A DNA stretch of 64,000 bases from an uncultured Trueperaceae bacterium (GCA_963727505.1 CAVSGP010000009.1:96001-160000); one strand, 5' to 3'; shown: positions 5,533 through 46,620, counted from the stretch's first letter. Numbers and translations are program-made. Notes: generated by a model not told the origin, from the sequence alone.

Positions 5533-6981
5533 TCACTGGAAGCGCTTCAGGTAGGGGTCGATCTGCCGTACTGCGCCGTCGAGCGCCTGCTGAGGGTCCG
5601 CGCCGTTGCGGATGTCGCTGAACGCGCTGTCGAAGATGTTGTGGAGCTGTAGGTAGGCCGGGGTCTTGGGGCGCACCACGGCGGTGGTGCGGGACTGGTA
5701 GACCCCCAGCAGGTAGGCGTCGTCGGGGAAGGCGGTATAGGCTTTACCGGAGCGGATCGTGTCGAGCACGCTCTGTTGCGGCGGAAAGTGGCCGTACGAC
5801 GTGAACCACAGCGCGGCCCCCTCTTCCGCGGTCAGGAAGCGGATGAACGCGGCCGCCTCTGCCTTGTGCTTCGAGTAGGCCGCCACCCCGAGGTACCAGC
5901 CTCCGGTAGGCGTCGCGACCGTGCCGCCCGCGAAGGCGGGGTACGGCGCGACGCCGAAATCGACGCCGGAGCTCTTGAACTTGCCGAGCTGCCAGGCGCC
6001 GCCGGCGTAGAGCGCGACCTTGCCTTCGGCGAACAGGTCGGCCGTCTGCGGATAGGGGACGCCCTTGGGACTCACCTGCGAGCCGTTGAAGAGATCGCCG
6101 TACCAGGTCGCGGCCTTCCGCCACGCCGGGCCGTTGAGGTAGCCGGTGACCGTCGTGCCGTCGGGGCTCAGGATGGTCCCTCCCAGCGACAGGCCCAGCG
6201 GCTGCAACTGATAGAGCTCGTCGGGCTGGCCGAAGGTGAAGCCCCACACGCGGGTCGCGCCGCCGGAGCGGATCGTGAGCTGCTTGGCGGCCGCCACGAC
6301 CTGCTCCCAGGTCCAGCGCTGCCGCTCCGCCAGCGTGGCGATGTCGGCGTACGACACCGTCTTGCCGGGCACGAGTCCGGCCGGCGGGGTGACGCCGGCG
6401 TTCTGGAAGAGCGTGCGGTTGTAGTACAGCAGCTGGATGGAGCTGTCCTGCGGAGCCGCCATCAGCCGACCGTTCACCCTGCCGGCGTCGAGGGCGGGTT
6501 GAACCCAGGTGTTCGCGAGTTGCTGAGCCGTGAAGGTTCCGTCCAAGGGGGCAAGATACCCGAGTGCGGTGTAGGCGGCCACCACCGGTTGGTCGACGAG
6601 CAGCACATCGATGCCGCTGTCGTGCGCGCGCATCCTGACCTGCGTGGTCTGGAACAGGTCACCGAAGGAGTAGCCCTCCATCTTCACGCAGACGCCCGGA
6701 TGCTGCTTCTCGAACGCCTGGATGACCGGCTGCATGCCGCTATCGAACTCCGAGAGCGTCAGGTAGTCGATGGTGGTGGTGCACGCGGACTGCGCGGCCG
6801 CGGTTCCCGGGAGCACCAGCCCCGCCAGCGCCAGCGTCGCGACGGCCATACGGACGAGTCGAGATCGACGCCTGGGGCGCGGCACGCCGACGAGCGCCCT
6901 GTGGCGGGAGGCCGCGGACGATCCGCGGGTTCGTGGTTCGGTGCGTGCACCGTCGATCGTTGCCATGCCGGGACGTCCCAT
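5533..6981 (-). CDS. Sugar ABC transporter substrate-binding protein
   Basis: GAGGAGAGAGG RBS; signal peptide ending TAAA|Q; LYYNRTLF, WTWEQ, FAEGKVA motifs; start uncertain. Confidence 0.85.
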   Translation of the reverse strand: MGRPGMATIDGARTEPRTRGSSAASRHRALVGVPRPRRRSRLVRMAVATLALAGLVLPGTAAAQSACTTTIDYLTLSEFDSGMQPVIQAFEKQHPGVCVKMEGYSFGDLFQTTQVRMRAHDSGIDVLLVDQPVVAAYTALGYLAPLDGTFTAQQLANTWVQPALDAGRVNGRLMAAPQDSSIQLLYYNRTLFQNAGVTPPAGLVPGKTVSYADIATLAERQRWTWEQVVAAAKQLTIRSGGATRVWGFTFGQPDELYQLQPLGLSLGGTILSPDGTTVTGYLNGPAWRKAATWYGDLFNGSQVSPKGVPYPQTADLFAEGKVALYAGGAWQLGKFKSSGVDFGVAPYPAFAGGTVATPTGGWYLGVAAYSKHKAEAAAFIRFLTAEEGAALWFTSYGHFPPQQSVLDTIRSGKAYTAFPDDAYLLGVYQSRTTAVVRPKTPAYLQLHNIFDSAFSDIRNGADPQQALDGAVRQIDPYLKRFQ

Positions 6982-7267
6982 GTTGCCTCTCTCCTCGCGG
7001 TCCCGCCCGAACCCCAGGGTGGTTCGAACGTCGCGGGCCGTACTCGAGGGTGCGGCGGTATGCCCCCCGGTACCGTGTGCCAAGGTACCAGAGTGCGGAC
7101 GGGCCAGCCGGGCGTCCGTGGCATGAGCGCCCCGAGACGAAGCGTGTGTGGGGCGATACCGCCGATGCCACGGAAGGCGATACCGTCGGACGGTGGCGCC
7201 ACGGGCCCCAGCATCCGGCGGCCCCCGAGCTCCCTGCGTCACGGGATCCGGTACCGAAGGAGAGCGC

Positions 7268-7879
7268 ATGACCGATCGTCCCGATTCCACGAACTACGTT
7301 CCCAGGCTCCATGTCGTCGTGGCGAGCACGCGTCCCGGCCGTGTGGGGCTGCCGGTGGGTGAATGGATCTATCAACGCGCCGTGGAGCACGGTGGCTTCG
7401 AGGTCGAGTGGGTCGACCTGGCCGAGGTCGATCTGCCCTTCTACGACGAGCCTGAACACCCCCGTCTGCAGCGCTACCAACACCAGCACACCAAGGCCTG
7501 GAGCGCGCGCGTCGAACGTGCAGACGCGTTCGTGTTCGTGACGCCCGAGTACAACTTCGGCTTCACAGCGCCGCTCAAGAACGCGATCGACTTCCTCCAC
7601 CGGGAGTGGGCGTACAAACCCGCCGGGATCGTGAGCTACGGTGGCGTGGCCGCCGGAACGCGCGCCGCCCAGATGCTGAAGCAGGTGCTCACCACCCTGA
7701 AGATGACACCGATGGTCGAGGCCGTGTCGATCCCGTTCGTGAAGCAGTTCCTCGATGAGGACGGGCGGATCCGGGCCAACGAGACGATGGAGCAGGCGGC
7801 GGACGCCATGCTCGACGAGCTGGCGCGCTGGGAGCGCCAGCTCCGGCCGTTGCGAAGCGAGGTCGTCGGGGCGTCCTGA
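7268..7879 (+). CDS. NADPH-dependent FMN reductase
   Basis: STRPGRVG, VTPEYN, LKNAID, VSYGG motifs; AAGGAG RBS. Confidence 0.9.
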   Translation: MTDRPDSTNYVPRLHVVVASTRPGRVGLPVGEWIYQRAVEHGGFEVEWVDLAEVDLPFYDEPEHPRLQRYQHQHTKAWSARVERADAFVFVTPEYNFGFTAPLKNAIDFLHREWAYKPAGIVSYGGVAAGTRAAQMLKQVLTTLKMTPMVEAVSIPFVKQFLDEDGRIRANETMEQAADAMLDELARWERQLRPLRSEVVGAS

Positions 7880-7891
7880 CCCGCCCGATGT

Positions 7892-10542: not shown

Positions 10543-10824
10543 TCAGGCGGGAGCGGCGTACTCCAGCTGGTCCACGAGACGGTCCAGGGCGTCGAAACCG
10601 TGCACGCGCGCGATCTCGAGCGGGCTGCGATTCTTGAGCTCGGCGTCGGGCGTGTTCAGGAAACGCCGGATGCGCGCCTCGTCGTGGTCGAAGACGGACG
10701 TCAGGCGCCGCACCACGGACGGAGCGAGATGCGCACTCTCGCGCACCCGCTTCGCCGGCGCCAGATAGCGCAAGAGTCTTCGCTGCAGGCGCTGTTCAGC
10801 TTCGGGCCGATCGATCTGGTCCAT
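10543..10824 (-). CDS. Xre/MbcA/ParS-type antitoxin C-terminal domain protein (orphan)
   Basis: VFDHDEARIRRFLNTPDAELKNRSPLE...G..L..LEY pattern; GGAGG RBS. Confidence 0.65.
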   Translation of the reverse strand: MDQIDRPEAEQRLQRRLLRYLAPAKRVRESAHLAPSVVRRLTSVFDHDEARIRRFLNTPDAELKNRSPLEIARVHGFDALDRLVDQLEYAAPA

Positions 10825-11033
10825 CGAACTCGCCTCCACATGACGAGGCTAGGGGGCGGCCGTGAGTTCGCCATGACATGACGACGAGAGCGTCCTCATG
10901 CCGTCCATGGCGGCCCGTCCGGGCGTTCGCGGTTCGTTCACACAGCCTCCCCCCAACCTTCCCACGGCAGGTCCTACGCTGCAGGAGACATCGGGGCCCT
11001 CGAACCGAACCCCGGCCCCCGAAGGAGACCACC

Positions 11034-11618
11034 ATGACCCGGAACCGCACTCTCGCCCTCAGCCTCGTGATCGCCGGGGCGCTCGTCGCCTCGATGGCGC
11101 TTGCCTACGGTCCCCGAAACGCTCAGCGCTCCGCCGGCCCGCAGGGCCCCGCGAACTTCGACCGCGGCCCGGTGGCCGGAATACAGGCTGCGACCCACGC
11201 CGATCTCGCCGCCTTGCTCGGGATCAGCGAGGACGCCCTGGTCGCCGAGCGCCAGAGCGGGAAAACGGTCGCCGATCTGCTCGTCGAGCACGGCTTGACC
11301 ACGGCCGACGCCAGCGCAACGCTCGTGGCCCAGCGTGATTCGCGCATCGACGCAGCGGTTGCCGCGGGCACGGTCGATGCCCAACGCGCCGACGTGATGA
11401 AGAGCCGCACGCCCGACGCCATCGCAGCCATGCTCACGCGTGAGCTCGGCCCGCGCGCCGGCAACATGTTCGGGCCCTCGACCGGGAACCGGAACGCGAC
11501 CCCCATGAGCACACGGGCGCAGCGTGGCGGAGGCCAGGGCTGGCAGACGGGGAACCGTGGCGGTCCCGGTATGGGCATGCACGAGCCCGGCTACCGCTTC
11601 AGCCTTCCCAACAACTGA
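11034..11618 (+). CDS. Secreted helical protein with Gly/Met-rich tail
   Basis: AAGGAG RBS; signal peptide ALA|Y; LAALLGISEDAL..ERQSGKTVADL motif. Confidence 0.7.
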   Translation: MTRNRTLALSLVIAGALVASMALAYGPRNAQRSAGPQGPANFDRGPVAGIQAATHADLAALLGISEDALVAERQSGKTVADLLVEHGLTTADASATLVAQRDSRIDAAVAAGTVDAQRADVMKSRTPDAIAAMLTRELGPRAGNMFGPSTGNRNATPMSTRAQRGGGQGWQTGNRGGPGMGMHEPGYRFSLPNN

Positions 11619-11640
11619 CCCGACGCCTCCTCCTAGCTGG

Positions 11641-11678
11641 TTGCCCGCCCGGGGTATCGCCTCCCCCCGGGCGGGCGA
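11641..11678. terminator. GC-rich hairpin between convergent genes
   Basis: GCCCGCCCGGGG ... CCCCGGGCGGGC 12-bp stem. Confidence 0.6.
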
Positions 11679-11683
11679 TCGCG

Positions 11684-12478
11684 TCATGGGACCGAAGAAG
11701 AGTCGCCGCCGATGCGCAGGTCAGGTAGGTCGGCGGCCAGCCGACGCGCGTAGGCGGGCTCGTGGTCCCAGCACGAGGCAACCTCCCAGGCGCGTAACGC
11801 CGCTTCCGCGGCCTCCCAGCCCGGGCGCGGGCGGCCGCCGAGCGCGATCGACAACGCCACCTCATCGAGGATCGACGCGTCCACGCGGGCCTCGTCCCAA
11901 TCGACCAGTGCCACGTTGCCTTCCGGCGTCACCAGGATGTTCTCGCGCTGCAGGTCCCCGTGGACGACCGAGCGCGGAGCGCCGGCGAGACGCGCCCAGG
12001 CGGCCCTGCACGCGTCGGCCACGTCGTGGGGCATGCCGTCGAGCTCGATGTCGCCGGCGCTACGACGTTCGACCATGGCGGCGCTCGATGCGAAGCCGGG
12101 GCGCTGGGTCGTCCCTCGGGTGGCGTCGTGGAAACCGCGCAGGAGAGTCCGCAGGCGGGCGAGGCTGCGGGCGTCGGCGGGACGGCCGTCGATGAAGCGT
12201 TCCAAGGTGATTCCGTCCTCGACCAGGTACCCGGCCCGGCTGCGCAGCGGTTCCGGGGTCACCAGCCCGATCTCGCGAGCCTGGACGTGCACCGCCTCGA
12301 GCCAGCTCAGCGCCTCGGCGCTGCGTCGCGTCCCTTTGGCGACGAGCGTCTCGCCGGCACGTTCGACCAGCAGGACGGGGTTGCGGTTCCCTCCCGGCAG
12401 CTCGCGCACGACGCGGAGCTCGCCCCAGGCCGTCGTGCGCTCGAGTCGTTCCTGCAAGCTGCGCGCCGAGAACGCCAC
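11684..12478 (-). CDS. Aminoglycoside phosphotransferase / choline kinase-like family kinase
   Basis: LVAK, HGDLQRENIL, LVDWD motifs; GTG start chosen from the GAAGGA RBS (track ORF is over-extended). Confidence 0.8.
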   Translation of the reverse strand: MAFSARSLQERLERTTAWGELRVVRELPGGNRNPVLLVERAGETLVAKGTRRSAEALSWLEAVHVQAREIGLVTPEPLRSRAGYLVEDGITLERFIDGRPADARSLARLRTLLRGFHDATRGTTQRPGFASSAAMVERRSAGDIELDGMPHDVADACRAAWARLAGAPRSVVHGDLQRENILVTPEGNVALVDWDEARVDASILDEVALSIALGGRPRPGWEAAEAALRAWEVASCWDHEPAYARRLAADLPDLRIGGDSSSVP

Positions 12479-12531
12479 GCGTGCCCGGCGTTCCTTCGGT
12501 TCGTCGCCCCCCACCACGTTCCTCGGTCGTC

Positions 12532-13332
12532 CTACTCGTTGGGCGGCGAGCCCGGTGGCACGGGGATTCGGCGCCGATGTTCGATGCGCATCGACGTGCC
12601 GGCGAACGCGGCCGCGTCGGCGTCGAGCGGGATGCTGGTTGACGGCGTGCCGATGCCGAACCCCTGAAGGTGGGTGACGCCCAGGTCCTTGAGTTGCTGA
12701 CGGACGGTCGGATCCTCGACGCCCTCCGCCACCACGATGCCGAAGCGGTCGAGAGCGTCCGCCACCAGATCGATGGCGCGCTGCTGGTAGGTGCCTCCGA
12801 GGAGTGCGGGCAGCAGGCTTCGATCGAGCTTGACGCCGTCGATCGGTGCGCCCTTCCGGAAGCGGTGGTCGAGGTCGTCGAAGGTCACGTCGTCGAGAAG
12901 GACGATCGCGCAATGGTCGCGCACGCCCTCGAGCCCCTGCCAGTAGGCGTCGAGATTGCGGATCTGCTGCTCGGTGAGCTCGACGACGAGGCGCTGCTGC
13001 AGCTCGGGTTTCAGGCTGCGGAGGGCGTGCACGGCAGCTGGTTGCGTCACCTGGGCGGGACTCAGGTTGATGCTCAGGCGCGCCCCGGGCGAAGCGAGCA
13101 GCGCTTCCGCGGCGCGCGCCACGGTGAAGCGCGTGAAGGCCTCGCTGCGGGTGGGGGCAAGCCAGTAGGGCAGGACGTCCAAGGGTCCACGTACCGTGCC
13201 GTCCGGAAGCCGCCAGCGCACCAGCGCCTCGTACCAATGCACGATGCCGGCCGCTGCCGATTCGATCGGCTGGAACTGATAGTGGAGGTCCTGCAGGCGG
13301 GGGTAGGGAACGTGGATGGGGTCGTACTTCAT
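12532..13332 (-). CDS. Stand-alone EAL domain protein with divergent loop 6
   Basis: FQPI, YEALVRW, SINLS, VELTE, LDD, VKLDR, AEGVE, LQGF. Confidence 0.9.
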   Translation of the reverse strand: MKYDPIHVPYPRLQDLHYQFQPIESAAAGIVHWYEALVRWRLPDGTVRGPLDVLPYWLAPTRSEAFTRFTVARAAEALLASPGARLSINLSPAQVTQPAAVHALRSLKPELQQRLVVELTEQQIRNLDAYWQGLEGVRDHCAIVLLDDVTFDDLDHRFRKGAPIDGVKLDRSLLPALLGGTYQQRAIDLVADALDRFGIVVAEGVEDPTVRQQLKDLGVTHLQGFGIGTPSTSIPLDADAAAFAGTSMRIEHRRRIPVPPGSPPNE

Positions 13333-13434
13333 GACGGTGGCGATCCCGCCTCCCCCAGGGGGCGACGCGCCCCGCGAGCGAAGGCCGCAGGGCGCGTAAC
13401 AGGTCGATGGGGCGCTACGCCCCGTGCCGCACGC

Positions 13435-13578
13435 TCAGCCCGCGTCGTAGCTTCCGGACTGACTCCCCGAGTCGGCCAGCGTCATGCTCTGGTGAGCGAT
13501 GGTCACGCCCCCGGCGGCCGAGCCGAGCAGGACGAGTGCGAGAATAGTGCTGCGGATGATCTTCTTGAGCGTGGGCAC
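13435..13578 (-). CDS. 47-aa secreted pro-peptide MPTLKKIIRSTILALVLLGSAAGGVTIAHQSMTLADSGSQSGSYDAG (not in ORF track)
   Basis: Hand-translated; AAGGAGG 5 nt before GTG; basic n-region, hydrophobic h-region, polar tail; own TAGGCT -10. Confidence 0.8.
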   Translation of the reverse strand: MPTLKKIIRSTILALVLLGSAAGGVTIAHQSMTLADSGSQSGSYDAG

Positions 13579-13652
13579 CGGGTCCTCCTTGGGTTCCTTC
13601 TTGCTGGTTTCCCCTTTGGGTCTCCTCTGTCTCTGACCCTCTTGCTGCTTGG

Positions 13653-13737
13653 AGCCTACGGGTGGGGGCGCTTCAACCCCGCTTCAACCACGCGGGCTCG
13701 GGCTGAAGCGGGGGTGGAGCGCCCCCCGGCCTACCGT
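13653..13737. promoter_or_regulatory. Mirror-symmetric divergent promoter pair, each with two 10-bp direct repeats (11-bp period) 10 nt upstream of a -10
   Basis: Minus: GGTTGAAGCG x2 (13689-13680, 13678-13669), N10, TAGGCT (13658-13653). Plus: GGCTGAAGCG (13701), GGGTGGAGCG (13712), N10, TACCGT (13732-13737). Confidence 0.75.
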
Positions 13738-13761
13738 GCGGGTCGAGAAGAGGAGGCAGGC

Positions 13762-13953
13762 ATGACGAGAGAAGAAGCCCTCCAACGGCTGGATGGAACG
13801 TGGTCGTTCGATGTCGTCGGGGACCAGGTTCTGATTCGAGAGTTGGGTCTGCTGTCGGCCGTCGACGCGATCCGTCGCGAGCGGTCGGCGGCGGGCCAGC
13901 GCCCGTTCGTCTCCACGGCGTCGTTCGAGGGGGCGGCCGCCTCCGGCGATTGA
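13762..13953 (+). CDS. 63-aa hypothetical protein (MTREEALQRLDGTWSFDVVGDQVLIRELG...)
   Basis: AGGAGG at 13751-13756, ATG at 13762, downstream of the TACCGT -10; hidden at the end of a spurious 427-aa track ORF. Confidence 0.65.
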   Translation: MTREEALQRLDGTWSFDVVGDQVLIRELGLLSAVDAIRRERSAAGQRPFVSTASFEGAAASGD

Positions 13954-14023
13954 GCGCGACCGTCGACCGCAGCTCCAGGCGTGGTCGCGCGGGAGCTCGC
14001 GCCTATGCCGGTATGCTCATGAT

Positions 14024-16495
14024 GTGTGGCTGAAGCGTCAGCTCGATCGCATCGTCGCAAGCGAGCGGCCGGTGGCGTTGCTCGGCGGCGAGCCGTACGG
14101 CGTTCCCTTCCTCATCGACGCGCTCCGTGAGCGGGAACGGCTAGCCTGGGTCACGTTGTCCCGGCGCGCGCGCGACGACGTGGTGGCACAGGGCAACGCC
14201 CTGGCGAGCGCGTTGAATCAGCAGCTCGGCGAGTCGCTCCTGCCGCACGCCTTGCCCTACCGGGCACACCTGCAGTCGTTGCGCCAGTACCGCCACGATC
14301 TTCAACCGCTGTGGATCGCCGTGTCCGGCGCCGATGTCGCGCCCGCCTTCGCGGGTGAGCTGGTCCAGCTCGCCGACTTCGGCTACCGCGTGCTGCTGGG
14401 GTTCGAGACGGACGTGCCGCCGGAGATGGACGGGCTCGATCGGTGCCTGGTGCTGGGCGTGCCCGAACTCACCGTGACCCGCGAGGACGCAGCGATGATC
14501 GCTCCCGGTGGCCTCTCTGCCGGTGAGCTCGACGCCGTTCAACGCGAGACCGGAGGGCGGTTCACGGACCTCCTGACGGTCACCCACGAACGGGCCCAGC
14601 TCCCACGCTTCCCGATCCCGACGCCGCTCGGGCCGGTGCTGCCGCAGCGCCGAGCCGAAGCCGTCGACGTTCCACTGGCGGTGCTGGGGCTCCAGCGCGA
14701 GGGTCGCCCGGTCGACGCTCTCGAGCTGGCCGTGCGGGCCGCGCCCGAGATGGTGGAGGACCTGCTGCGCACGGCGGGCCCCGCCTACCAGGACGAGGGC
14801 GCGTTGCCCCGACTGCACCTGCTCCTGTCGAGCCTGCCGCAGCCCTACCGGTCTCTCGAGCGCGTGCTGGAGTGGCGTTTCCTGGCCTCCTTCGCGACCA
14901 ACGAGTGGCGCGCCCTGGTCGAGGAGGTCGACGCCCACCTGGAGGCGTTCACGGCGCCCGAGCTTCGTGCACGGCGCGCGGGCACGCTGGCGCGCGAGGC
15001 CGGGTTCCCGCTGGCGGAGGCTGCCATGCGGGCGCGGCGCACGCCGCTGACGCTCTGGCAGTACGGGCGCATGCATCCCGACGCGCAACGGGCGGTGGAG
15101 GTGCTCAAGGAGAGCGTGCGCCTGGCGGAACAGGCCGGCACGCCGTACGAGGTGGCACGCAGCGCCGGCGTCCTGGCCGACCGCCTGGTGCACCTGGGGC
15201 AGTTCCAACGGGGCCGCTCCTGGGCGGAGTACGCCCTGCAGGTGTTCGACCAGAACGGGCTGCGAGACGGCGCACGCCGGCTGACGCTGTTCAACAACCT
15301 GGCCGTGGCCCGCATCCTCAGCGGGGACCTGGCAGGGCTGCGGCGTGGGCTCGAGGACGGGCAGGCCGCCATCGAAGGGAGCCTTCCCGAGCTCGCCGCG
15401 ACCTTCCGCGGCACGCTCGCCTGGTTCGAGCAGGCTAGCGGTCGACCGGAAGAGGCGCTCGAGCTGATGCGGGCCACTTTCGAGGGCAGCCCACGCCGGT
15501 TCCGGACGCGCTTCGGCTACCAGTTCGTGCGCTGCCTCAACGAGTTCGGACGCTACGAGGAGGCGGCCCGGGTCGCGGACGTCGCCGCGGAGCTCAGCGG
15601 CGACGCCTCGGCGCATGCCCGTCAGCTCGGGGCGCTTGCCCAGGGCATGGTGGGCGCGGTCAAGGGCGACGCGACCGCGGTCGACGACCTGCTCGGTGTC
15701 GTGATCGACGGTTCCCTCCCCGCCGAGCAGCGCCTGACGGCGGCGCTCCACGGCCTGCTGGTCGACCCCGCGGGCTGGCACCGCTACCCACCCGACGTCG
15801 TCGAAGTGCTCCGGGGCCTCGACGGCGGCGCGCTGCGCGTGCTCAGCGGGCCCGCGTCGGTCTTCCAGGGCGTCTGGGACACCCTCGTACCGGTGCGCGC
15901 GGAGCTGCGGCTGGAGTTCCTCGGGCGCGTCTCCTGCCGCCTGGGCGGCAAGGAGATCGGGCTGGCGCCGCGCATGGCGGAGACCGCGCTGGCGCTGGCG
16001 CTCCACCCCGACGGGATGACGCGCGAGGAGCTCAACGCCTTCCTGGCGCCCGACGGCACCGCCGGGCTGTCACCGAGCGGTATGCGGGCCACGCTCACCC
16101 GCTTGCGGGCCCTGCTACCGGTCAGCGACGCGCCCTACCGGTTCGCCGTGGCGTACACGGCCGACATCCTGCAGGCGCGGCGTCACCTTCTGGAGAAGCG
16201 CGTTCGCGAGGCTGTCACGCTGCTGCGTGGGCCGCTCCTTCCCGAGAGCGAGGCGCTCGGCGTCGAGGAGCAGCGCTGGATCCTGGAGGAGGAGCTCCGG
16301 CAGGCCGTCCTCGAGGCTGCGGATCCGGACGCCCTCTTCGACCTCGCCGACCGGCTTCAGGACGACGTGCAGCTGTGGGAAGCCGCGGTCGGCGCGCTCC
16401 CGCCGGGCGATCCTCGCAGGGCCCTGGCGCGCGCGCGTCTGCACCGCGGCCAGAGCGAGCAGGTTCCGCCGGCGCGAGGCCCGGCCCAGGCCTGA
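14024..16495 (+). CDS. Large transcriptional regulator: degenerate MalT/STAND-like N-terminus, TPR-like region, C-terminal wHTH plus BTAD (SARP-type)
   Basis: AWVTLS...DD and ELTVTREDA...ETGG MalT-like segments; LRLEFLG, ALHPDGMTREEL, TLTRLR, LLRGPLLPES; leaderless TATGCT-N6-GTG. Confidence 0.75.
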   Translation: MWLKRQLDRIVASERPVALLGGEPYGVPFLIDALRERERLAWVTLSRRARDDVVAQGNALASALNQQLGESLLPHALPYRAHLQSLRQYRHDLQPLWIAVSGADVAPAFAGELVQLADFGYRVLLGFETDVPPEMDGLDRCLVLGVPELTVTREDAAMIAPGGLSAGELDAVQRETGGRFTDLLTVTHERAQLPRFPIPTPLGPVLPQRRAEAVDVPLAVLGLQREGRPVDALELAVRAAPEMVEDLLRTAGPAYQDEGALPRLHLLLSSLPQPYRSLERVLEWRFLASFATNEWRALVEEVDAHLEAFTAPELRARRAGTLAREAGFPLAEAAMRARRTPLTLWQYGRMHPDAQRAVEVLKESVRLAEQAGTPYEVARSAGVLADRLVHLGQFQRGRSWAEYALQVFDQNGLRDGARRLTLFNNLAVARILSGDLAGLRRGLEDGQAAIEGSLPELAATFRGTLAWFEQASGRPEEALELMRATFEGSPRRFRTRFGYQFVRCLNEFGRYEEAARVADVAAELSGDASAHARQLGALAQGMVGAVKGDATAVDDLLGVVIDGSLPAEQRLTAALHGLLVDPAGWHRYPPDVVEVLRGLDGGALRVLSGPASVFQGVWDTLVPVRAELRLEFLGRVSCRLGGKEIGLAPRMAETALALALHPDGMTREELNAFLAPDGTAGLSPSGMRATLTRLRALLPVSDAPYRFAVAYTADILQARRHLLEKRVREAVTLLRGPLLPESEALGVEEQRWILEEELRQAVLEAADPDALFDLADRLQDDVQLWEAAVGALPPGDPRRALARARLHRGQSEQVPPARGPAQA

Positions 16496-16640
16496 GGCCT
16501 CGAACGTCCCTCCGCGACGGCCTTCCCCGAAAATGCTGATCGAGCATGGTGGAAAACGATACACTACGCGCCAGGCCCGAAATCCGCCTTGTACGCCCGC
16601 TGCGGGTGTCGGGCGAAGGAAGCTCCCATTCGGAGGTGAC

Positions 16641-18158
16641 ATGAGAAAGTCGCTCTTACTCCTCTTAGCCGGGGTCGCGCTGTCGTTCGGCGCTGCGTTC
16701 GCCGCCAGCGGCACGGTCAGCGTTGCGATGTCCGGGAACGCCATCACACTCAACCCCGGGGACACCAACGGCAACCTCGATTTCTCCATCCAGCGCCCCA
16801 TCTACGAAGGCCTGGTCGGCTTCGACAAGGACGGCAAGCTCGTCCCCGAGCTGGCTACCTCCTGGACGGCCAGCTCGGACGCGACGGTGTTCACGTTCGA
16901 TCTGCGCAAGGGTGTGACCTTCCAGGACGGCACGCCGTTCAACGCCGAGGCCGTAAAGACCTACTTCGACTGGGTCATCGATCCCGCCAACCATTTCGTG
17001 CGCGAGAGCCTGTACAACGTCATCAAGTCGATCGACGTGGTGTCGGAGTACCAGGTCAAGTTCACGCTCTCCAAGCCCTTCGGCGCGATGCTCTTCACAT
17101 TCGCGCACCCTGCCGGGCGCATCGTCAGTCCTGCTGCCATCAAGAAGTACGGCAAGGACGTGGCGAAGCACCCCGTAGGTACCGGTCCCTTCGAGTTCGT
17201 GAGCTGGACGCCGGGCCAGAAGGTGGTCCTGAAGGCCAACCCCAGCTACTGGGGTGACGCGCCGCAGGTCGCCAACCTGCAGTTCCTGTTCGTGCCCAAC
17301 GCCGCGACGCGCGTGGCTATGCTGCAGAGCGGCGAGGCGCAGTTCATCGAGGACCTCCCGCCGCAGCTCGTCGACCCCATCAAGGCCGACAGCAACCTGA
17401 CGGTCAGCGCCCAGCCGAGCATCTACGTGCGCTACATGGCGATGAACACGCAGGCCAAGCCGTTCAACGATCAGCGCGTGCGTCAGGCGCTGAACTACGC
17501 GGTGGACAAGAAGACCATCGTCGACGTCATCACCAAGGGCTACGGCACCGCGTTGACGGCTCCGATCGCCGAGCAGGTGACGGGCTACGCCAAGCAGACG
17601 CCGTACGCCTACAATCCCGAGAAGGCCAAGCAGCTGCTGGCCGAGGCCGGCTATCCCAACGGCTTCACCTTCACCATCGACTCGCTCAACAGCACCGGCT
17701 ACCAGCAGATCGATCAGGTGCTGCAGCAGATGTTCGCGAAGGTGGGCGTGACCGCCAAGATCAACCCGATGGAGAGCGGCACGTTCTCCAGCACGGTGTT
17801 CGCGCCGTTCGACAAGACCACCCTCCAGGCAGTCGTCATCGGCTGGTCCCCGTCGACCGGTGACGCCGACTGGGGCCTGCGCCCGCTGTTCGACAAGGCC
17901 TCCTGGCCGCCCGATCTGTACAACCTGGCGTTCTACGACAACCCCAACGTCAACAAGCTGATCGCCGACGGCCTCAGCACGGCCAATCAGGACATCCGCA
18001 ACCAGGCCTATGCCTCCGCCGAGAAGACCATCTGGAACGATGCTCCCTGGGTCTTCCTGTACAGCCCCTACAACATCGCGGGTATCTCCGCGAAGTTGAA
18101 CGGCGTCTTCTACATGCCCGACGGCACGGTGGACGCCCGGGCGGCCAGCCTGCAGTAA
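16641..18158 (+). CDS. gsiB: Peptide/glutathione ABC substrate-binding protein (GsiB/DppA family)
   Basis: LRKGVTFQDGTPFNAEAV, PVGTGPF; GsiB-like GWSPSTGDADWGLRPLF..SWPP.LYN.AFY; GGAGG RBS. Confidence 0.8.
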   Translation: MRKSLLLLLAGVALSFGAAFAASGTVSVAMSGNAITLNPGDTNGNLDFSIQRPIYEGLVGFDKDGKLVPELATSWTASSDATVFTFDLRKGVTFQDGTPFNAEAVKTYFDWVIDPANHFVRESLYNVIKSIDVVSEYQVKFTLSKPFGAMLFTFAHPAGRIVSPAAIKKYGKDVAKHPVGTGPFEFVSWTPGQKVVLKANPSYWGDAPQVANLQFLFVPNAATRVAMLQSGEAQFIEDLPPQLVDPIKADSNLTVSAQPSIYVRYMAMNTQAKPFNDQRVRQALNYAVDKKTIVDVITKGYGTALTAPIAEQVTGYAKQTPYAYNPEKAKQLLAEAGYPNGFTFTIDSLNSTGYQQIDQVLQQMFAKVGVTAKINPMESGTFSSTVFAPFDKTTLQAVVIGWSPSTGDADWGLRPLFDKASWPPDLYNLAFYDNPNVNKLIADGLSTANQDIRNQAYASAEKTIWNDAPWVFLYSPYNIAGISAKLNGVFYMPDGTVDARAASLQ

Positions 18159-18224
18159 GTTCCTGACGTGCGGAGAGCCGGCCCGCTACGGCTGGCCGGC
18201 TCCCGCTCGTTGACCTTATTCATC

Positions 18225-19145
18225 ATGTGGCGCTATCTGATCCGTCGACTGCTCGAGCTCATCCCGACGCTGATCGGTGTCTCGATCGCGGTCTTTCTCT
18301 TCATCCATGCCATCCCAGGTGACCCTGCCCGCCTGGCGGCTGGACAGGATGCCTCGCTCGCCGACGTCGAGGCGATGCGCGTGCGCCTGGGACTCAACCA
18401 CAGCCTGCCGGTCCAGTACCTTTACTTCCTCCGGAATGCCGCCCACGGCGATTTCGGGCTCTCCTTTCGCCAGCAGGTGCCGGTGCTTCAGGTGGTGCGC
18501 GAGCACTTCATGCCCACCCTTCTGCTTTCGACGAGCGCCATCGTCATCGCGTTCGTCTTCGGCTTGTTGTCGGGGGTGATGGCGGCGACGCGCCGCAACT
18601 CCTGGTTCGACCTGGTGATCACGGGGCTCTCCGCCACCGGCATCAGCATCCCATCGTTCTTCCTCGGGATCCTGCTCATCTATCTGTTCGCCGTCGATCT
18701 TCACTGGTTCCCGGTCACCGGGAGCGTGAGCCTGCGCGGGCTCGTGCTGCCCTCGGTGAGCCTTGCTCTGGCGCCGCTCGCCACCATCGCGCGCTTCGTG
18801 CGCTCGAGCTTCCTGGAGGTCTCGGGCGAGGACTTCGTGCGCACGGCCAGTGCCAAGGGGCTCGGCTATGCCGCCGTCACCTACAAGCACGCGCTGCGTA
18901 ACGCCCTGATCCCCGTGGTGACCATGACCGGGCTCCAGTTCGGCTTCCTGCTCGGCGGGGCGGTCGTCATCGAGACGGTGTTCAACTTCACGGGCCTGGG
19001 CTGGCTGCTGATCCAGTCGATCGGCTTTCGCGACTACGCCGTGCTCCAGGTCCTGCTGCTGCTCTTCGCGTTGGAGTTCATGCTGGTGAACCTGCTGGTT
19101 GACGTCACCTATGGCGCACTGGACCCGAGGATCCGCTATGACTAG
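18225..19145 (+). CDS. gsiC: Peptide/glutathione ABC permease (GsiC/DppB)
   Basis: IPGDPAR, GDFGLSF, DFVRTASAKGL, HALRNALIP. Confidence 0.8.
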   Translation: MWRYLIRRLLELIPTLIGVSIAVFLFIHAIPGDPARLAAGQDASLADVEAMRVRLGLNHSLPVQYLYFLRNAAHGDFGLSFRQQVPVLQVVREHFMPTLLLSTSAIVIAFVFGLLSGVMAATRRNSWFDLVITGLSATGISIPSFFLGILLIYLFAVDLHWFPVTGSVSLRGLVLPSVSLALAPLATIARFVRSSFLEVSGEDFVRTASAKGLGYAAVTYKHALRNALIPVVTMTGLQFGFLLGGAVVIETVFNFTGLGWLLIQSIGFRDYAVLQVLLLLFALEFMLVNLLVDVTYGALDPRIRYD

Positions 19146-20007
19146 CGCAGCGTCCGCCGCTCCCGCCCGCGAGAGCCGGGGCCGCGACCTGTGGCGGCGC
19201 TTCCGGCGCCATCGCAGCGGCATGGCGGGCCTCGCGCTGACGGCCGTGTTCGTGCTGATGGCGATCTTCGGCCACCTTCTGGCGCCCTACGACCCGGCCC
19301 AGGCCGACTACCTGCACCTCAACGCTCCGCTCTCGGCTACGCACTGGCTGGGCACCGACAACTACGGCCGCGATATCTTCAGCCGGACGCTGGTCGGGGC
19401 ACGCTACTCGCTCAGCATCGGCGTCCTGGCGACGGCTTTCAGCGCGCTGATCGGCAGCCTGTGGGGGCTGCTCGCCGGCTACCTGAGTGGCTGGTTCGAT
19501 ACCCTCTCGGGGCGTGTCATCGACATCATGCTGGCCTTCCCGGGCCTGCTCCTGGCGATCGGCATCATCGCGATCGCCGGGCCCGGTTTTCGCAACGTCA
19601 TCCTCGCCACGACCATCTTCGGCATCCCGATCTTCGCGCGGCTGGTCCGCGGGTCGGCGCTGGCGCTCAAGGAGCGCGCCTACGTGGAAGCGAGCCAGGC
19701 GCTGGCGGCCAGCTCCGCGCGCATCATGTTCCGGCACGTGCTGCCCAACATCTTGGCACCGATCCTGGTGTACATCACGTTGCGCGTCGGCACGGTGATC
19801 CTCATCGCGGCGTCGCTGTCGTTCCTGGGTCTCGGGGTCCAACCGCCGACGCCCGAGTGGGGCGCCATGCTCAGCGAAGCTCAGCTCTACCTGGCCATCG
19901 ATCCCATCATGGCGATCGCGCCCGGCGTGGCGATCAGTCTCGCCGTCCTGGGCTTCAATCTGCTGGGCGACGGTCTGCGCGACGTGCTCGATCCGCGCAT
20001 CCGCTGA
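19138..20007 (+). CDS. gsiD: Peptide/glutathione ABC permease (GsiD/DppC)
   Basis: HWLGTDNYGRDIFSR, LSFLGLG.QPPTPEWG, NLLGDGLRDVLDP. Confidence 0.8.
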   Translation: MTSAASAAPARESRGRDLWRRFRRHRSGMAGLALTAVFVLMAIFGHLLAPYDPAQADYLHLNAPLSATHWLGTDNYGRDIFSRTLVGARYSLSIGVLATAFSALIGSLWGLLAGYLSGWFDTLSGRVIDIMLAFPGLLLAIGIIAIAGPGFRNVILATTIFGIPIFARLVRGSALALKERAYVEASQALAASSARIMFRHVLPNILAPILVYITLRVGTVILIAASLSFLGLGVQPPTPEWGAMLSEAQLYLAIDPIMAIAPGVAISLAVLGFNLLGDGLRDVLDPRIR

Positions 20008-45657: not shown

Positions 45658-46620
45658 ATGACCGAGGTCGAGCACAGCGAGCGCTGGGACCGGATCTGGG
45701 CGGGTTTCTTCCGAAACCTACCGCACGGGGTGGTCGTGTTCCGGGCGGTGCGCAACGACGAGGGTCGGCTGCGCGACTTCGTGTGGGTGGACGTCAATCC
45801 GGTTGGCGCCGGCATCCTGCGCGTAGCCCGGACGGACCTGATCGGCCAGCGGCTGCGCAGCGTCTACCCCGACCACCTGGATCCGCGCCTGTTGTGGCGG
45901 CTGGCGTCGGCGCTGCACGGGCGCCGCCCGCGCGAGTTCGAGTACGCGGTCCCCACGCCGCCGTTCCGGCCGCAGCGACCCGGCGCCGGAGCACGGGATG
46001 CGGACGTCGCTGGTGGGGTCGAGGGCGACGCACCGCCCGCCTGGTGGTACGCGGTGACGGTGGTGCCGGCCGACGAGGATCACGTGGTGGTGCTGTTCCG
46101 CTCCATCACCGATTACAAGGACGTGCTGCGGCAGGCCGTCGAGTTGATGAACCACGACGACCTGACCGGGCTGGCCAACCGGCGCCACATGAAGTCGAGG
46201 TTCTGGGTGTGGCGCAAGCGGCGCGTGCGCATGGCGATCATCTACTTCGACCTCAACGGCTTCAAGACGGTGAACGACAGGCACGGGCACGAGGCCGGCG
46301 ATCAGGTGCTAGGGGTTATCGGGCAGCGTTTGAAGCAGAACGTGCGTCCCGGCGAGATGGTGGCACGCATCGGCGGAGACGAGTTCGCGGTCCTGCTGGG
46401 CGAAGCCGAGGTGGGCACCCTCGATCGCGTTGCAGAGCGCCTGATCCAGTCGGTGGAGGAGCCCATCCATCTCGCCGACTACACGGTGCAGCTCAGCGCC
46501 AGCGTGGGTGCCGCCCTCTACCCGGACGACGCCGAGTCCTTCGAAGCCCTTCTCGGTCGCGCCGACGAGCGCATGTACCAGCACAAGCGGGAGTACCGCG
46601 CCGCGCAGGGCCAGAGCTGA
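45658..46620 (+). CDS. PAS-like sensor diguanylate cyclase
   Basis: HDDLTGLANR, DLNGFKTVND.HGH.AGD, RIGGDEF; I-site reads RPGE rather than RxxD. Confidence 0.9.
   Translation: MTEVEHSERWDRIWAGFFRNLPHGVVVFRAVRNDEGRLRDFVWVDVNPVGAGILRVARTDLIGQRLRSVYPDHLDPRLLWRLASALHGRRPREFEYAVPTPPFRPQRPGAGARDADVAGGVEGDAPPAWWYAVTVVPADEDHVVVLFRSITDYKDVLRQAVELMNHDDLTGLANRRHMKSRFWVWRKRRVRMAIIYFDLNGFKTVNDRHGHEAGDQVLGVIGQRLKQNVRPGEMVARIGGDEFAVLLGEAEVGTLDRVAERLIQSVEEPIHLADYTVQLSASVGAALYPDDAESFEALLGRADERMYQHKREYRAAQGQS

Follow-up and report, generated by a model that had tools for sequence, protein, structure and literature searches.

Background

Can a bacterium of the Deinococcota follow its own density by means of a small exported peptide that is read inside the cell, and couple that reading directly to the second messenger cyclic dimeric guanosine monophosphate (c-di-GMP)? 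The question is raised by a locus at positions 11,684 to 16,495 of a 64,000-nucleotide stretch of DNA from an uncultured Trueperaceae bacterium (GCA_963727505.1 CAVSGP010000009.1:96001-160000), which as a whole is called the window here. In this locus an open reading frame (ORF) for a 47-residue pro-peptide and a stand-alone EAL gene share one strand, and across a mirror-like promoter region they face a 63-residue ORF and a large regulator with tetratricopeptide repeats (TPR) on the other. An earlier note on the window had read this arrangement, together with a kinase-like gene and an ABC (ATP-binding cassette) peptide importer at its two ends, as a quorum-sensing-like system with a c-di-GMP output. 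The analysis reported here, which is computational throughout, confirmed and extended that observation. To the reading of the locus as a self-contained peptide-pheromone circuit, with a c-di-GMP phosphodiesterase as its output, we assign a probability of a little under 60%.

The host belongs to a Trueperaceae lineage within the order Deinococcales (Deinococcota), and is thus a relative of Deinococcus; it is a soil bacterium represented by a metagenome-assembled genome (MAG), as are all of its closest relatives, and the G+C content of the region is about 70%. Quorum sensing by peptides with a cytoplasmic receptor is treated as a speciality of the Bacillota and of mobile elements, the reference family being RRNPP (named after Rap, Rgg, NprR, PlcR and PrgX). 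In its available part, a survey of that family covers Firmicutes and viruses only, and defines the receptors as proteins of 250-500 residues (PMC10075063). For the DNA-binding domain found in the present regulator, that of the Streptomyces antibiotic regulatory proteins (SARP), the available text of PMC10936776 describes targets in which direct repeats follow each other at 11 or 22 bp and 8 bp separate the 3' repeat from the -10 element; AfsR sits as two adjacent protomers on a 22-bp box that overlaps with the -35 region (PMC10936776).

Results

Conservation of the module

The regulator was searched in 41 related genomes and found in 29 of them, namely in 9/9 further genomes of the genus and in 20/24 further genomes of the family; matches in other families of the order are mostly confined to its C-terminal region, and the few longer ones are partial or at the level of the paralogue. 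A genome usually holds one orthologue (39-94% identity) and one paralogue (~30% identity). Stretches of 9 kb around the orthologues were joined by 23 more from named MAGs, and the removal of four duplicates and of loci without upstream DNA left 31 informative loci, coming from many genera and numbered here with the prefix L. A phosphodiesterase gene stands behind the peptide gene in all 31 of them (EAL in 29, HD-GYP in L035 and L066). The signal-peptide ORF and the 63-residue ORF are each present in 30, the exception in both cases being L061, where a masked stretch occupies the place of the latter and an N-masked remnant that of the former. A profile recovered 27 of the signal-peptide ORFs, a motif scan added that of L034, and ORF listing those of L035 and L066. 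Looking for small signal-peptide ORFs beside homologous regulators, a check that the earlier note had proposed, therefore returned them almost everywhere.

The pair that is invariant around the operator consists of the peptide gene and the 63-residue ORF, and the regulator gene is usually found behind the latter. Other flanking genes differ between genera, so that the core amounts to four genes and the operator. The kinase-like gene and the ABC importer, both of which had been counted as parts of the system, are not conserved parts of the module. The kinase gene is accessory: it is present in L021-L025 and not in L026-L028 (5/8 genus loci), and occurs in no other genus. The importer lies downstream of the regulator in 9/9 loci of the genus and in 0/8 loci of other genera; a family-5 binding protein is encoded ~3 kb away in L061 and L067. 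A role of the kinase as modifier of the peptide was considered and dropped, the gene being missing from most loci.

Some loci carry further genes beside the module. An M28 peptidase, an ABC exporter and a family-5 binding protein accompany it in L067 (176-2665, 6948-9317 and 9962-11431), a locus with a four-copy precursor. A gene for an S58 (DmpA-type) peptidase occupies the gap between the 63-residue ORF and the regulator at L033:2910-4043 and L036:2929-3984. In one genus, a GGDEF diguanylate cyclase gene (L029:203-1678; 6e-38) adjoins the EAL gene of the module.

The pro-peptide and its C-terminal unit

The 47-residue precursor opens with a Sec-type signal sequence and closes with a C-terminal unit, residues 36-47 (DSGSQSGSYDAG), which ends in a D-x-G motif that is invariant in the family. 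In 24 aligned single-copy orthologues the start and the D-x-G at the extreme end are invariant, an alanine 12 residues before the precursor end is nearly so, and the stretch between that alanine and D-x-G is variable. That the ORF is coding is supported by a GC3 (G+C at third codon positions) of 0.87, by a conserved ribosome-binding site and by a frame kept across genera. Predicted n-, h- and c-regions in 30/31 loci make it a putative secreted pro-peptide gene adjoining that of the receptor, as in RRNPP systems. The genome holds one such peptide gene, and a database search with the peptide gathered 71 clusters, none of them with a Pfam family and the named ones all 'hypothetical' or Trueperaceae.

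Natural precursors exist with one, two, three or four tandem copies of the C-terminal unit, the copies ending in D-x-G. Among 20 fetched proteins, eight have two copies and one has three, with a conserved 10-residue spacer in between, and four copies are found in L059 and L067. The 12-residue units of L059 abut without any spacer, and its relative L063 has that unit once. In L035 and L066, a D-P-G motif is followed by a tail of 11 residues. The repeat and tail forms argue that the unit is excised, one of the cuts falling behind the glycine, and thus point to its release as a processed peptide; the directly abutting units of L059 would limit the mature peptide to at most 12 residues, which in the window are residues 36-47.

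Architecture of the regulator

In its structure model (pLDDT, the predicted local distance difference test, 89.5; predicted TM score, pTM, 0.73) the regulator joins a degenerate module resembling that of STAND proteins (signal transduction ATPases with numerous domains) to a TPR sensor and a SARP domain, with neither a signal peptide nor a membrane segment. A structure search with the whole protein found the STAND-TPR protein 6mfv_A (E 5.7e-8) and MalT (8bob, 1hz4) to be most similar. For a 48%-identical homologue, the Atlas rows list MalT-like regulators and ~1000-residue AAA/WHD_MalT/TPR/BTAD proteins of other phyla, and the structure row aligns residues 4-642 with MalT-like LuxR regulators; the precomputed Pfam name PF27103 'YTH3_C' is taken solely from the Atlas row of this homologue. 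Pfam and NCBIfam return only generic TPR matches for the regulator itself, with no membership in a known RRNPP family.

The N-terminal module has a P-loop-like alpha/beta fold. The Walker A motif is GxxxxGK[ST]; at its place the regulator has G-G-E-P-Y-G-V-P (residues 21-28), with no lysine, and G26 and P28 of this degenerate loop are invariant in 19 sequences. To judge from these residues, the module departs from the STAND NTPase signature. The TPR part (residues 275-598) is closest to Rap/Phr complexes (8rsv_B, 4gyo_B; Z 23.8, rmsd, the root-mean-square deviation, 4.0-4.4 Å over 316-320 aligned residues), followed by MalT domain III (Z 21.9) and NprR (Z 20.9), a likeness to Rap that is suggestive only, since unrelated TPR proteins (LGN, APC subunits) reach Z ~20 and the margin is small. 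Within that modest margin, the model describes a probable cytoplasmic receptor whose TPR domain is of the peptide-binding type.

The C-terminal 202 residues fold on their own with a pLDDT of 90.2, and in a Foldseek search AfsR and EmbR take ranks 1-6 (E 1.1e-5 to 1.5e-4, TM 0.55-0.69) ahead of a next match at E 0.11; the AfsR matches include 8hvr_I (E 1.1e-5, TM 0.66) and 8k60. Pfam recognises Trans_reg_C in 4/19 members and BTAD in 1/19. By its modelled fold this part is a SARP domain, a winged helix followed by BTAD. The earlier description of a MalT/SARP-type receptor hence holds, as a MalT-like STAND/TPR protein with a true SARP domain, and needs two amendments: in the model the SARP domain stands at the C-terminal end (residues 622-813 of 823) and not at the N-terminus, and the NTPase module lacks the Walker A lysine.

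A model of the peptide-receptor complex

One complex model was made from regulator residues 205-625 and the whole precursor, each given as an alignment and the two alignments left unpaired. Its score, which is the model's own confidence, is 0.84 (0.84, 0.85 and 0.83 in the runs), against 0.00 for the best of three controls, and the verdict supports binding; the score mark was passed by 116/157 solved complexes and by 2/215 mismatched pairs. Contact agreement across the runs was at least 31% and partner pLDDT at least 37. Confident contacts involve residues 42 (G) and 44-47 (Y-D-A-G) of the peptide and residues 286-287, 290, 295, 316-324, 342-350 and 379 of the regulator, a range including A-P-E-L-R-A-R-R-A-G, the most conserved motif of the family. 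R317, W345, Q346, R349 and R379 of the pocket are conserved in orthologues, so that, in the model, an invariant acidic peptide end would meet an invariant arginine-rich pocket. Modelling the TPR sensor with the C-terminal peptide had been suggested beforehand as a check, and it places the invariant C-terminus in the receptor's most conserved motif.

Some co-variation between peptide and pocket was also seen. N353 accompanies four of the five aligned D-P-G peptides and 0/18 other aligned ones, and is found in the unaligned L035 as well, whose peptide ends in D-P-G; R318Y and W345F occur in lineages whose peptides carry a C-terminal tail. The lineages concerned are related in both cases, and these hints are therefore not counted as evidence.

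The proposed mirror operator

The divergent spacer between the peptide ORF and the 63-residue ORF measures 183 bp and contains two pairs of boxes. On the minus strand, TGAAGCG (CGCTTCA on plus) lies at 13669-13675 and 13680-13686; on the plus strand, TGAAGCG at 13704-13710 is followed by TGGAGCG at 13715-13721. Both pairs have an internal period of 11 bp, and on both sides 10 bp (in the 7-mer register) separate the pair from a -10-like TAnnnT hexamer that faces its own gene, TAGGCT at 13653-13658 (minus) and TACCGT at 13732-13737 (plus). Compared with the SARP rule in the available text of PMC10936776, the boxes agree within 1-2 bp, depending on the register; the geometry is close to that of a SARP target promoter, and the boxes are predicted sites of such a domain.

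The exact pattern TGAAGCG-N4-TGRAGCG occurs only at these two sites of the 3.26-Mb genome, and allowing one mismatch adds a single further site, vs seven for the reversed control pattern. Given this uniqueness, the regulon is probably the locus alone. In 9/9 sequences of the genus there is no change in the boxes, in either TAnnnT hexamer or in either ribosome-binding site; the spacers vary. Of 28 loci scanned, 21 have the full set of 2+2 mirror boxes when one mismatch is allowed in each box. The mirror promoter that the earlier note had drawn is thereby borne out, as is its expectation of box repeats beside homologous regulators. A sigma-70 consensus scan of 13250-14100 found no promoter, and two terminator-like matches in the same stretch lie on the wrong strand and overlap the ribosome-binding site of the peptide gene.

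Putative phosphodiesterase and 63-residue protein

In 19 orthologues of the EAL protein, the E and R of EALxR, N, ExxE, DD, K, EG and QG are invariant, positions that are catalytic or metal-binding in EAL enzymes; the conserved residues make the protein a putative phosphodiesterase. In L035 and L066, two distant lineages, the EAL gene is replaced by one for a non-homologous HD-GYP enzyme (Pfam HD_5, 2.1e-36 and 1.9e-27). That an enzyme of an unrelated class takes the place of the EAL protein argues more strongly than anything else for c-di-GMP breakdown as the selected output, and it strengthens the c-di-GMP claim of the earlier note. The genome has 21 GGDEF matches, from which it would follow that c-di-GMP is made. 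One of the 21 lies inside the same 64-kb window, at 46150-46599 (G000:C9:142150-142599).

The 63-residue ORF, like the 47-residue one, is conserved as a protein across genera. Its N-terminal ~45 residues are conserved, and the substitutions at codon positions 1/2/3 number 398/292/748, concentrated at the third. A database search returned 46 clusters, none with Pfam, and among their source entries only Trueperaceae is named. As a guess, the protein could act on the regulator as an anti-activator or co-factor.

A second, paralogous system

The STAND/TPR/SARP paralogue (~30% identical) has a conserved neighbourhood of its own (L038, L081-L088, L037). A family-5 ABC importer and a GerE regulator lie on one side of it and an RlmL-like methyltransferase gene on the other; beyond the methyltransferase gene, 8/10 paralogue loci have a gene for a membrane HD-GYP protein. 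Directly before the HD-GYP gene, a conserved 33-codon ORF was present in 7/7 loci examined, another genus included. Its product has a classic signal peptide ending in V-S-A and then just seven residues, the last an arginine; these seven would form the mature peptide, which is basic. In the pocket of the paralogue, W284, R315 and A316 are retained and R317, R349 and R379 are missing, with glutamates there in some members, which matches a basic peptide end. In the genome of the window, the paralogue is split into two ORFs (L038 2655-3716 and 3703-5142, minus).

In the genome G003 the orthologous regulator is 89% identical to that of the window. Its paralogue, however, has 67% and 61% identity to those of two more distant species with the same pocket type (the peptide being known for one of them, G006), and is only 55-57% identical to those of its close relatives. 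In this small sample, peptide type and pocket type appear to change together and against species relationship, the pattern of pherotype diversification.

Upstream of the second peptide ORF (L038:7883-8142; L081-L085, L087), four conserved boxes containing TGGGAG were noticed among short inverted repeats, the last two ~29 nt apart; they had no Rfam match and could be binding sites or RNA structure.

Layout of the locus and neighbouring genes

The features are collected in Table 1. The kinase, EAL, 47-residue, 63-residue, regulator and importer elements all lie where the earlier note had put them.

Table 1. Features of the window and of the second system (window positions, unless a locus or residues are named)
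Feature	Position	Strand	Remarks
APH-family kinase-like gene	11684-12520	minus	Pfam APH 2.3e-11; downstream of EAL gene
Stand-alone EAL gene, 266 aa, putative c-di-GMP phosphodiesterase	12532-13332	minus	Pfam EAL 2.8e-34; downstream of peptide gene, strand shared
Pro-peptide ORF, 47 aa	13435-13578	minus	basic N-terminus, hydrophobic core, small-residue c-region
Mirror operator and promoter pair	13653-13737	both	TGAAGCG-type boxes and TAnnnT hexamers
63-aa ORF, cytoplasmic small protein	13762-13953	plus	GAGGAGG ribosome-binding site upstream
Regulator, 823 aa	14024-16495	plus	STAND-like module, TPR sensor and SARP domain
Regulator, N-terminal module	residues 1-210		degenerate P-loop/STAND-like
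Regulator, TPR sensor	residues ~211-620
Regulator, SARP domain	residues 622-813		OmpR-type winged helix and BTAD
Family-5 solute-binding protein	16620-18158	plus	SBP_bac_5 6.2e-104; two permeases next
Family-5 (Dpp/Gsi/Opp-type) ABC importer	16620-20007	plus	binding protein and two permeases
Second system, HD-GYP gene	L038 (G000:C4:553000-562000), 6462-7658	minus
Second system, small ORF	L038, ~7781-7882	minus

The importer operon contains no ATPase gene, and the gene that follows it is on the opposite strand. Its binding protein reaches 424.9 bits with the GsiB model, under the model cut-off of 594, and the whole genome has 17 SBP_bac_5 matches; the adjacent family-5 importer may take up the peptide. 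PADLOC defence models gave zero matches for the regulator, the peptide, the 63-residue ORF and the EAL gene, and weak kinase-like matches only for the kinase. No Rfam match at E <= 0.1 was obtained in window 11000-17000, nor in three paralogue loci.

Two ORFs precede the kinase-like gene in the window. The first (10543-10839, minus) encodes 98 residues with the toxin-binding C-terminal domain of Xre/MbcA/ParS antitoxins (PF09722, 1.5e-7) and may be half of a toxin-antitoxin pair. The second (10878-11618, plus), just upstream of the kinase-like gene, encodes 246 residues with an internal signal-like segment and has no Pfam match.

Discussion

The proposed circuit

From the parts that were computed, i.e. 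gene conservation, folds, box conservation and the docking model, we infer the remaining steps: export, processing, re-import, ligand binding, DNA binding, enzyme activity and the sign of regulation. Sec would export the 47-residue precursor, and cleavage would leave a peptide of no more than 12 residues with Y-D-A-G at its end, which would build up outside and then re-enter the cell, probably via one of the many family-5 ABC importers. Inside, the C-terminus of the peptide would bind the arginine-lined TPR pocket of the cytoplasmic STAND/TPR/SARP regulator. Paired SARP domains of the regulator would occupy both of the 11-bp-spaced box pairs, which would replace the -35 elements of the back-to-back promoters, and would drive the peptide-phosphodiesterase operon and the 63-residue operon, the latter including the regulator gene in most lineages. 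The net effect would be a density-dependent feedback that alters c-di-GMP breakdown. The most likely sign seems to be that of a positive loop, as in PlcR/PapR; the regulator may also be a peptide-inhibited activator, as in AimR.

A broader proposition builds on the second system: the Trueperaceae would have a new class of cytoplasmic pheromone receptors, in which a TPR sensor links a degenerate STAND module to a C-terminal SARP domain, with at least two receptor/pro-peptide pairs per genome, each wired to an EAL or HD-GYP enzyme. This we advance tentatively, at a little less than even odds.

Alternative explanations

The small peptide could be the output of the locus instead of its signal, that is, a secreted effector (bacteriocin-like, surface-active, a matrix peptide, or a RiPP, a ribosomally synthesised and post-translationally modified peptide) expressed with the phosphodiesterase; RiPP enzymes would then be encoded elsewhere and the TPR sensor of the regulator would bind some other ligand. 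Multi-copy precursors are typical of ribosomal natural products too, and MalT-type sensors are known to bind small molecules; moreover, the module has no conserved importer, and in L067 it is flanked by an M28 peptidase and an ABC exporter. Yet the 31 loci show no conserved modifying enzyme next to the peptide gene, the complex model, whose controls score 0.00, brings the invariant C-terminus to the best-conserved motif of the receptor, and the paralogous regulator has its own peptide with matching changes of charge in the pocket, all of which leaves an effector improbable, if still worth bearing in mind. The tandem precursors bear in a different way on the idea that the product stays uncleaved, as a single-pass membrane micro-protein with a short outside tail that modulates a membrane partner, its linkage to the regulator being transcriptional only: repeats of the C-terminal unit alone, behind a single hydrophobic segment, are ill-suited to an anchor. 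With its flanks the hydrophobic stretch covers ~18 residues, a borderline anchor length, and one database source names a member 'uncharacterized membrane protein'; however, the paralogue's peptide is a classic signal-peptide end with seven residues behind it, and the docking partner is cytoplasmic. We consider an uncleaved product unlikely, and somewhat less probable than a secreted effector.

Precursors with two to four copies, as well as tails behind the motif, also misfit a stall at one fixed place, which is what would be expected if the small ORF were a cis-acting leader, i.e. a secretion-monitor or arrest peptide like SecM or MifM that controls the downstream phosphodiesterase through the state of translation or export. 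The ORF does combine an N-terminal export signal with a conserved motif adjoining the stop codon, and the regulated gene is the next one on its strand, but the ~100-nt spacer to the EAL gene is without unusual structure, a scan of the 121-nt stretch 13325-13445 (the spacer and its flanks) having found nothing special (z -0.40). A leader of this sort strikes us as highly implausible. Little credence, too, is due to the view that the inverted boxes form an RNA hairpin, attenuator or terminator, and not a protein operator. A 65-nt stretch of the window does fold at -51.3 kcal/mol, whereas paired cells (78.6%) hardly differ from those in shuffles (77.2%), the covariation score was equalled or passed by 98/500 shuffles, every variation in sequence breaks pairs and nothing but the boxes is invariant, and Rfam has no match; with pairing close to that of shuffles and no supporting covariation, the hairpin was rejected.

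Points that weigh against a peptide-pheromone circuit

Several observations speak against the circuit as proposed, beside the small margin of the Rap likeness given above. The loop after the DD motif of the EAL protein is atypical by the usual criterion, and its activity is for this reason not certain. Four clean boxes of the TGAAGCG type are absent in 7/28 loci, L023 having three of the four and six loci having other words; the 11-bp-spaced repeats in these six (TTCAGCG-like in L054; TTGCAR in L031, L035 and L066; TTTAAA in L033 and L036) were judged by eye only, and would mean that box word and DNA-binding domain drift together across lineages. The complex score may in part reflect Rap/Phr-type complexes that the model had learnt; self-made, unpaired alignments were used, peptide pLDDT is below 50, and only five peptide residues are placed with confidence. 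The database search assigns no role to the 63-residue protein. Adjacency of the importer is limited to one genus, and its best model is of the glutathione/dipeptide type and below cut-off. The S58 peptidase gene intervenes before the regulator in L033 and L036, and the regulator is convergent in L035 and L066; since the regulator gene is not always behind the 63-residue ORF, its autoregulation is not universal. Among the sequencing runs listed for the locus, 15 are metagenome DNA runs covering it in whole or in part, and RNA runs number 0.

Relation to known systems

The literature searched yielded no description of a system with this architecture, and none of the Pfam name YTH3_C; the earlier note likewise knew of no such system. 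The nearest relatives in logic are the RRNPP systems (Rap/Phr, NprR/NprX, PlcR/PapR, Rgg/SHP, AimR/AimP), in which, as here, a small gene for a Sec-type pro-peptide adjoins that of a cytoplasmic TPR receptor and the active part is the C-terminus of the precursor. The TPR fold is nearest to Rap-pheromone complexes and NprR, and in this genus a peptide importer is adjacent as well; in Rgg/SHP, receptor and peptide genes are divergent in the same manner. Unlike RRNPP receptors, which carry an N-terminal helix-turn-helix domain or a phosphatase effector part, the present one combines a STAND-like N-terminal module with a C-terminal SARP domain, and its 823 residues exceed the 250-500 of the survey's available part (PMC10075063). 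It therefore stands apart from RRNPP in size, effector order and sequence family, and differs further in its tandem multi-copy precursors, its c-di-GMP phosphodiesterase output and its Deinococcota host.

With the large SARP AfsR (SARP-NOD-TPR, NOD being a nucleotide-binding oligomerisation domain) the regulator shares three kinds of module and the fold of the SARP domain, and the targets are alike in consisting of a direct repeat with an 11-bp period, which overlaps with the -35 region near a weak -10, as given in the available text of PMC10936776. In contrast to AfsR, the domain order is reversed, with the SARP domain C-terminal, the Walker A lysine is missing, and the operator, a mirror pair, would serve both promoters. 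That source mentions no peptide ligand of AfsR, the word 'ligand' being absent from its main text (PMC10936776). MalT-type STAND activators (6mfv_A; MalT 8bob, 1hz4) share the NOD-like module and TPR-like sensor; the differences here are a SARP effector in place of LuxR/GerE, degenerate NTPase motifs, and a proposed ligand that is a peptide and not a sugar. As for the output, quorum sensing is known to control c-di-GMP turnover elsewhere, e.g. in Vibrio, where a density signal is coupled to c-di-GMP enzymes. The present locus differs in that the phosphodiesterase gene shares an operon with that of the signal precursor and encodes the only conserved enzymatic output, of interchangeable class (EAL/HD-GYP). 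We rate the system as a case of peptide signalling through an intracellular receptor, assembled from other parts in a phylum new for it, with a new output to which it is directly linked.

Conclusions

If the proposed circuit is real, it would be the first case of intracellular-receptor peptide quorum sensing outside the Bacillota and their phages, with multi-copy pheromone precursors and a pherotype-like diversification of the second system. Since no ligand is known for the TPR part of AfsR, the best-studied relative, the peptide would also be the first candidate ligand class for the TPR sensors of large SARP-type regulators. Peptides may likewise be what is bound by the orphan TPR sensors found in large SARP-type and MalT-like proteins of other phyla. 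With four genes and one operator, the module is small and seems to be self-contained in its genome; it could be transferred to a test host. The operon link between signal gene and phosphodiesterase would offer a compact route from cell density to second-messenger level, a link that the swap of enzyme class supports. A working system in the Deinococcota would mean that this logic of peptide signalling arose, or persisted, far more widely.

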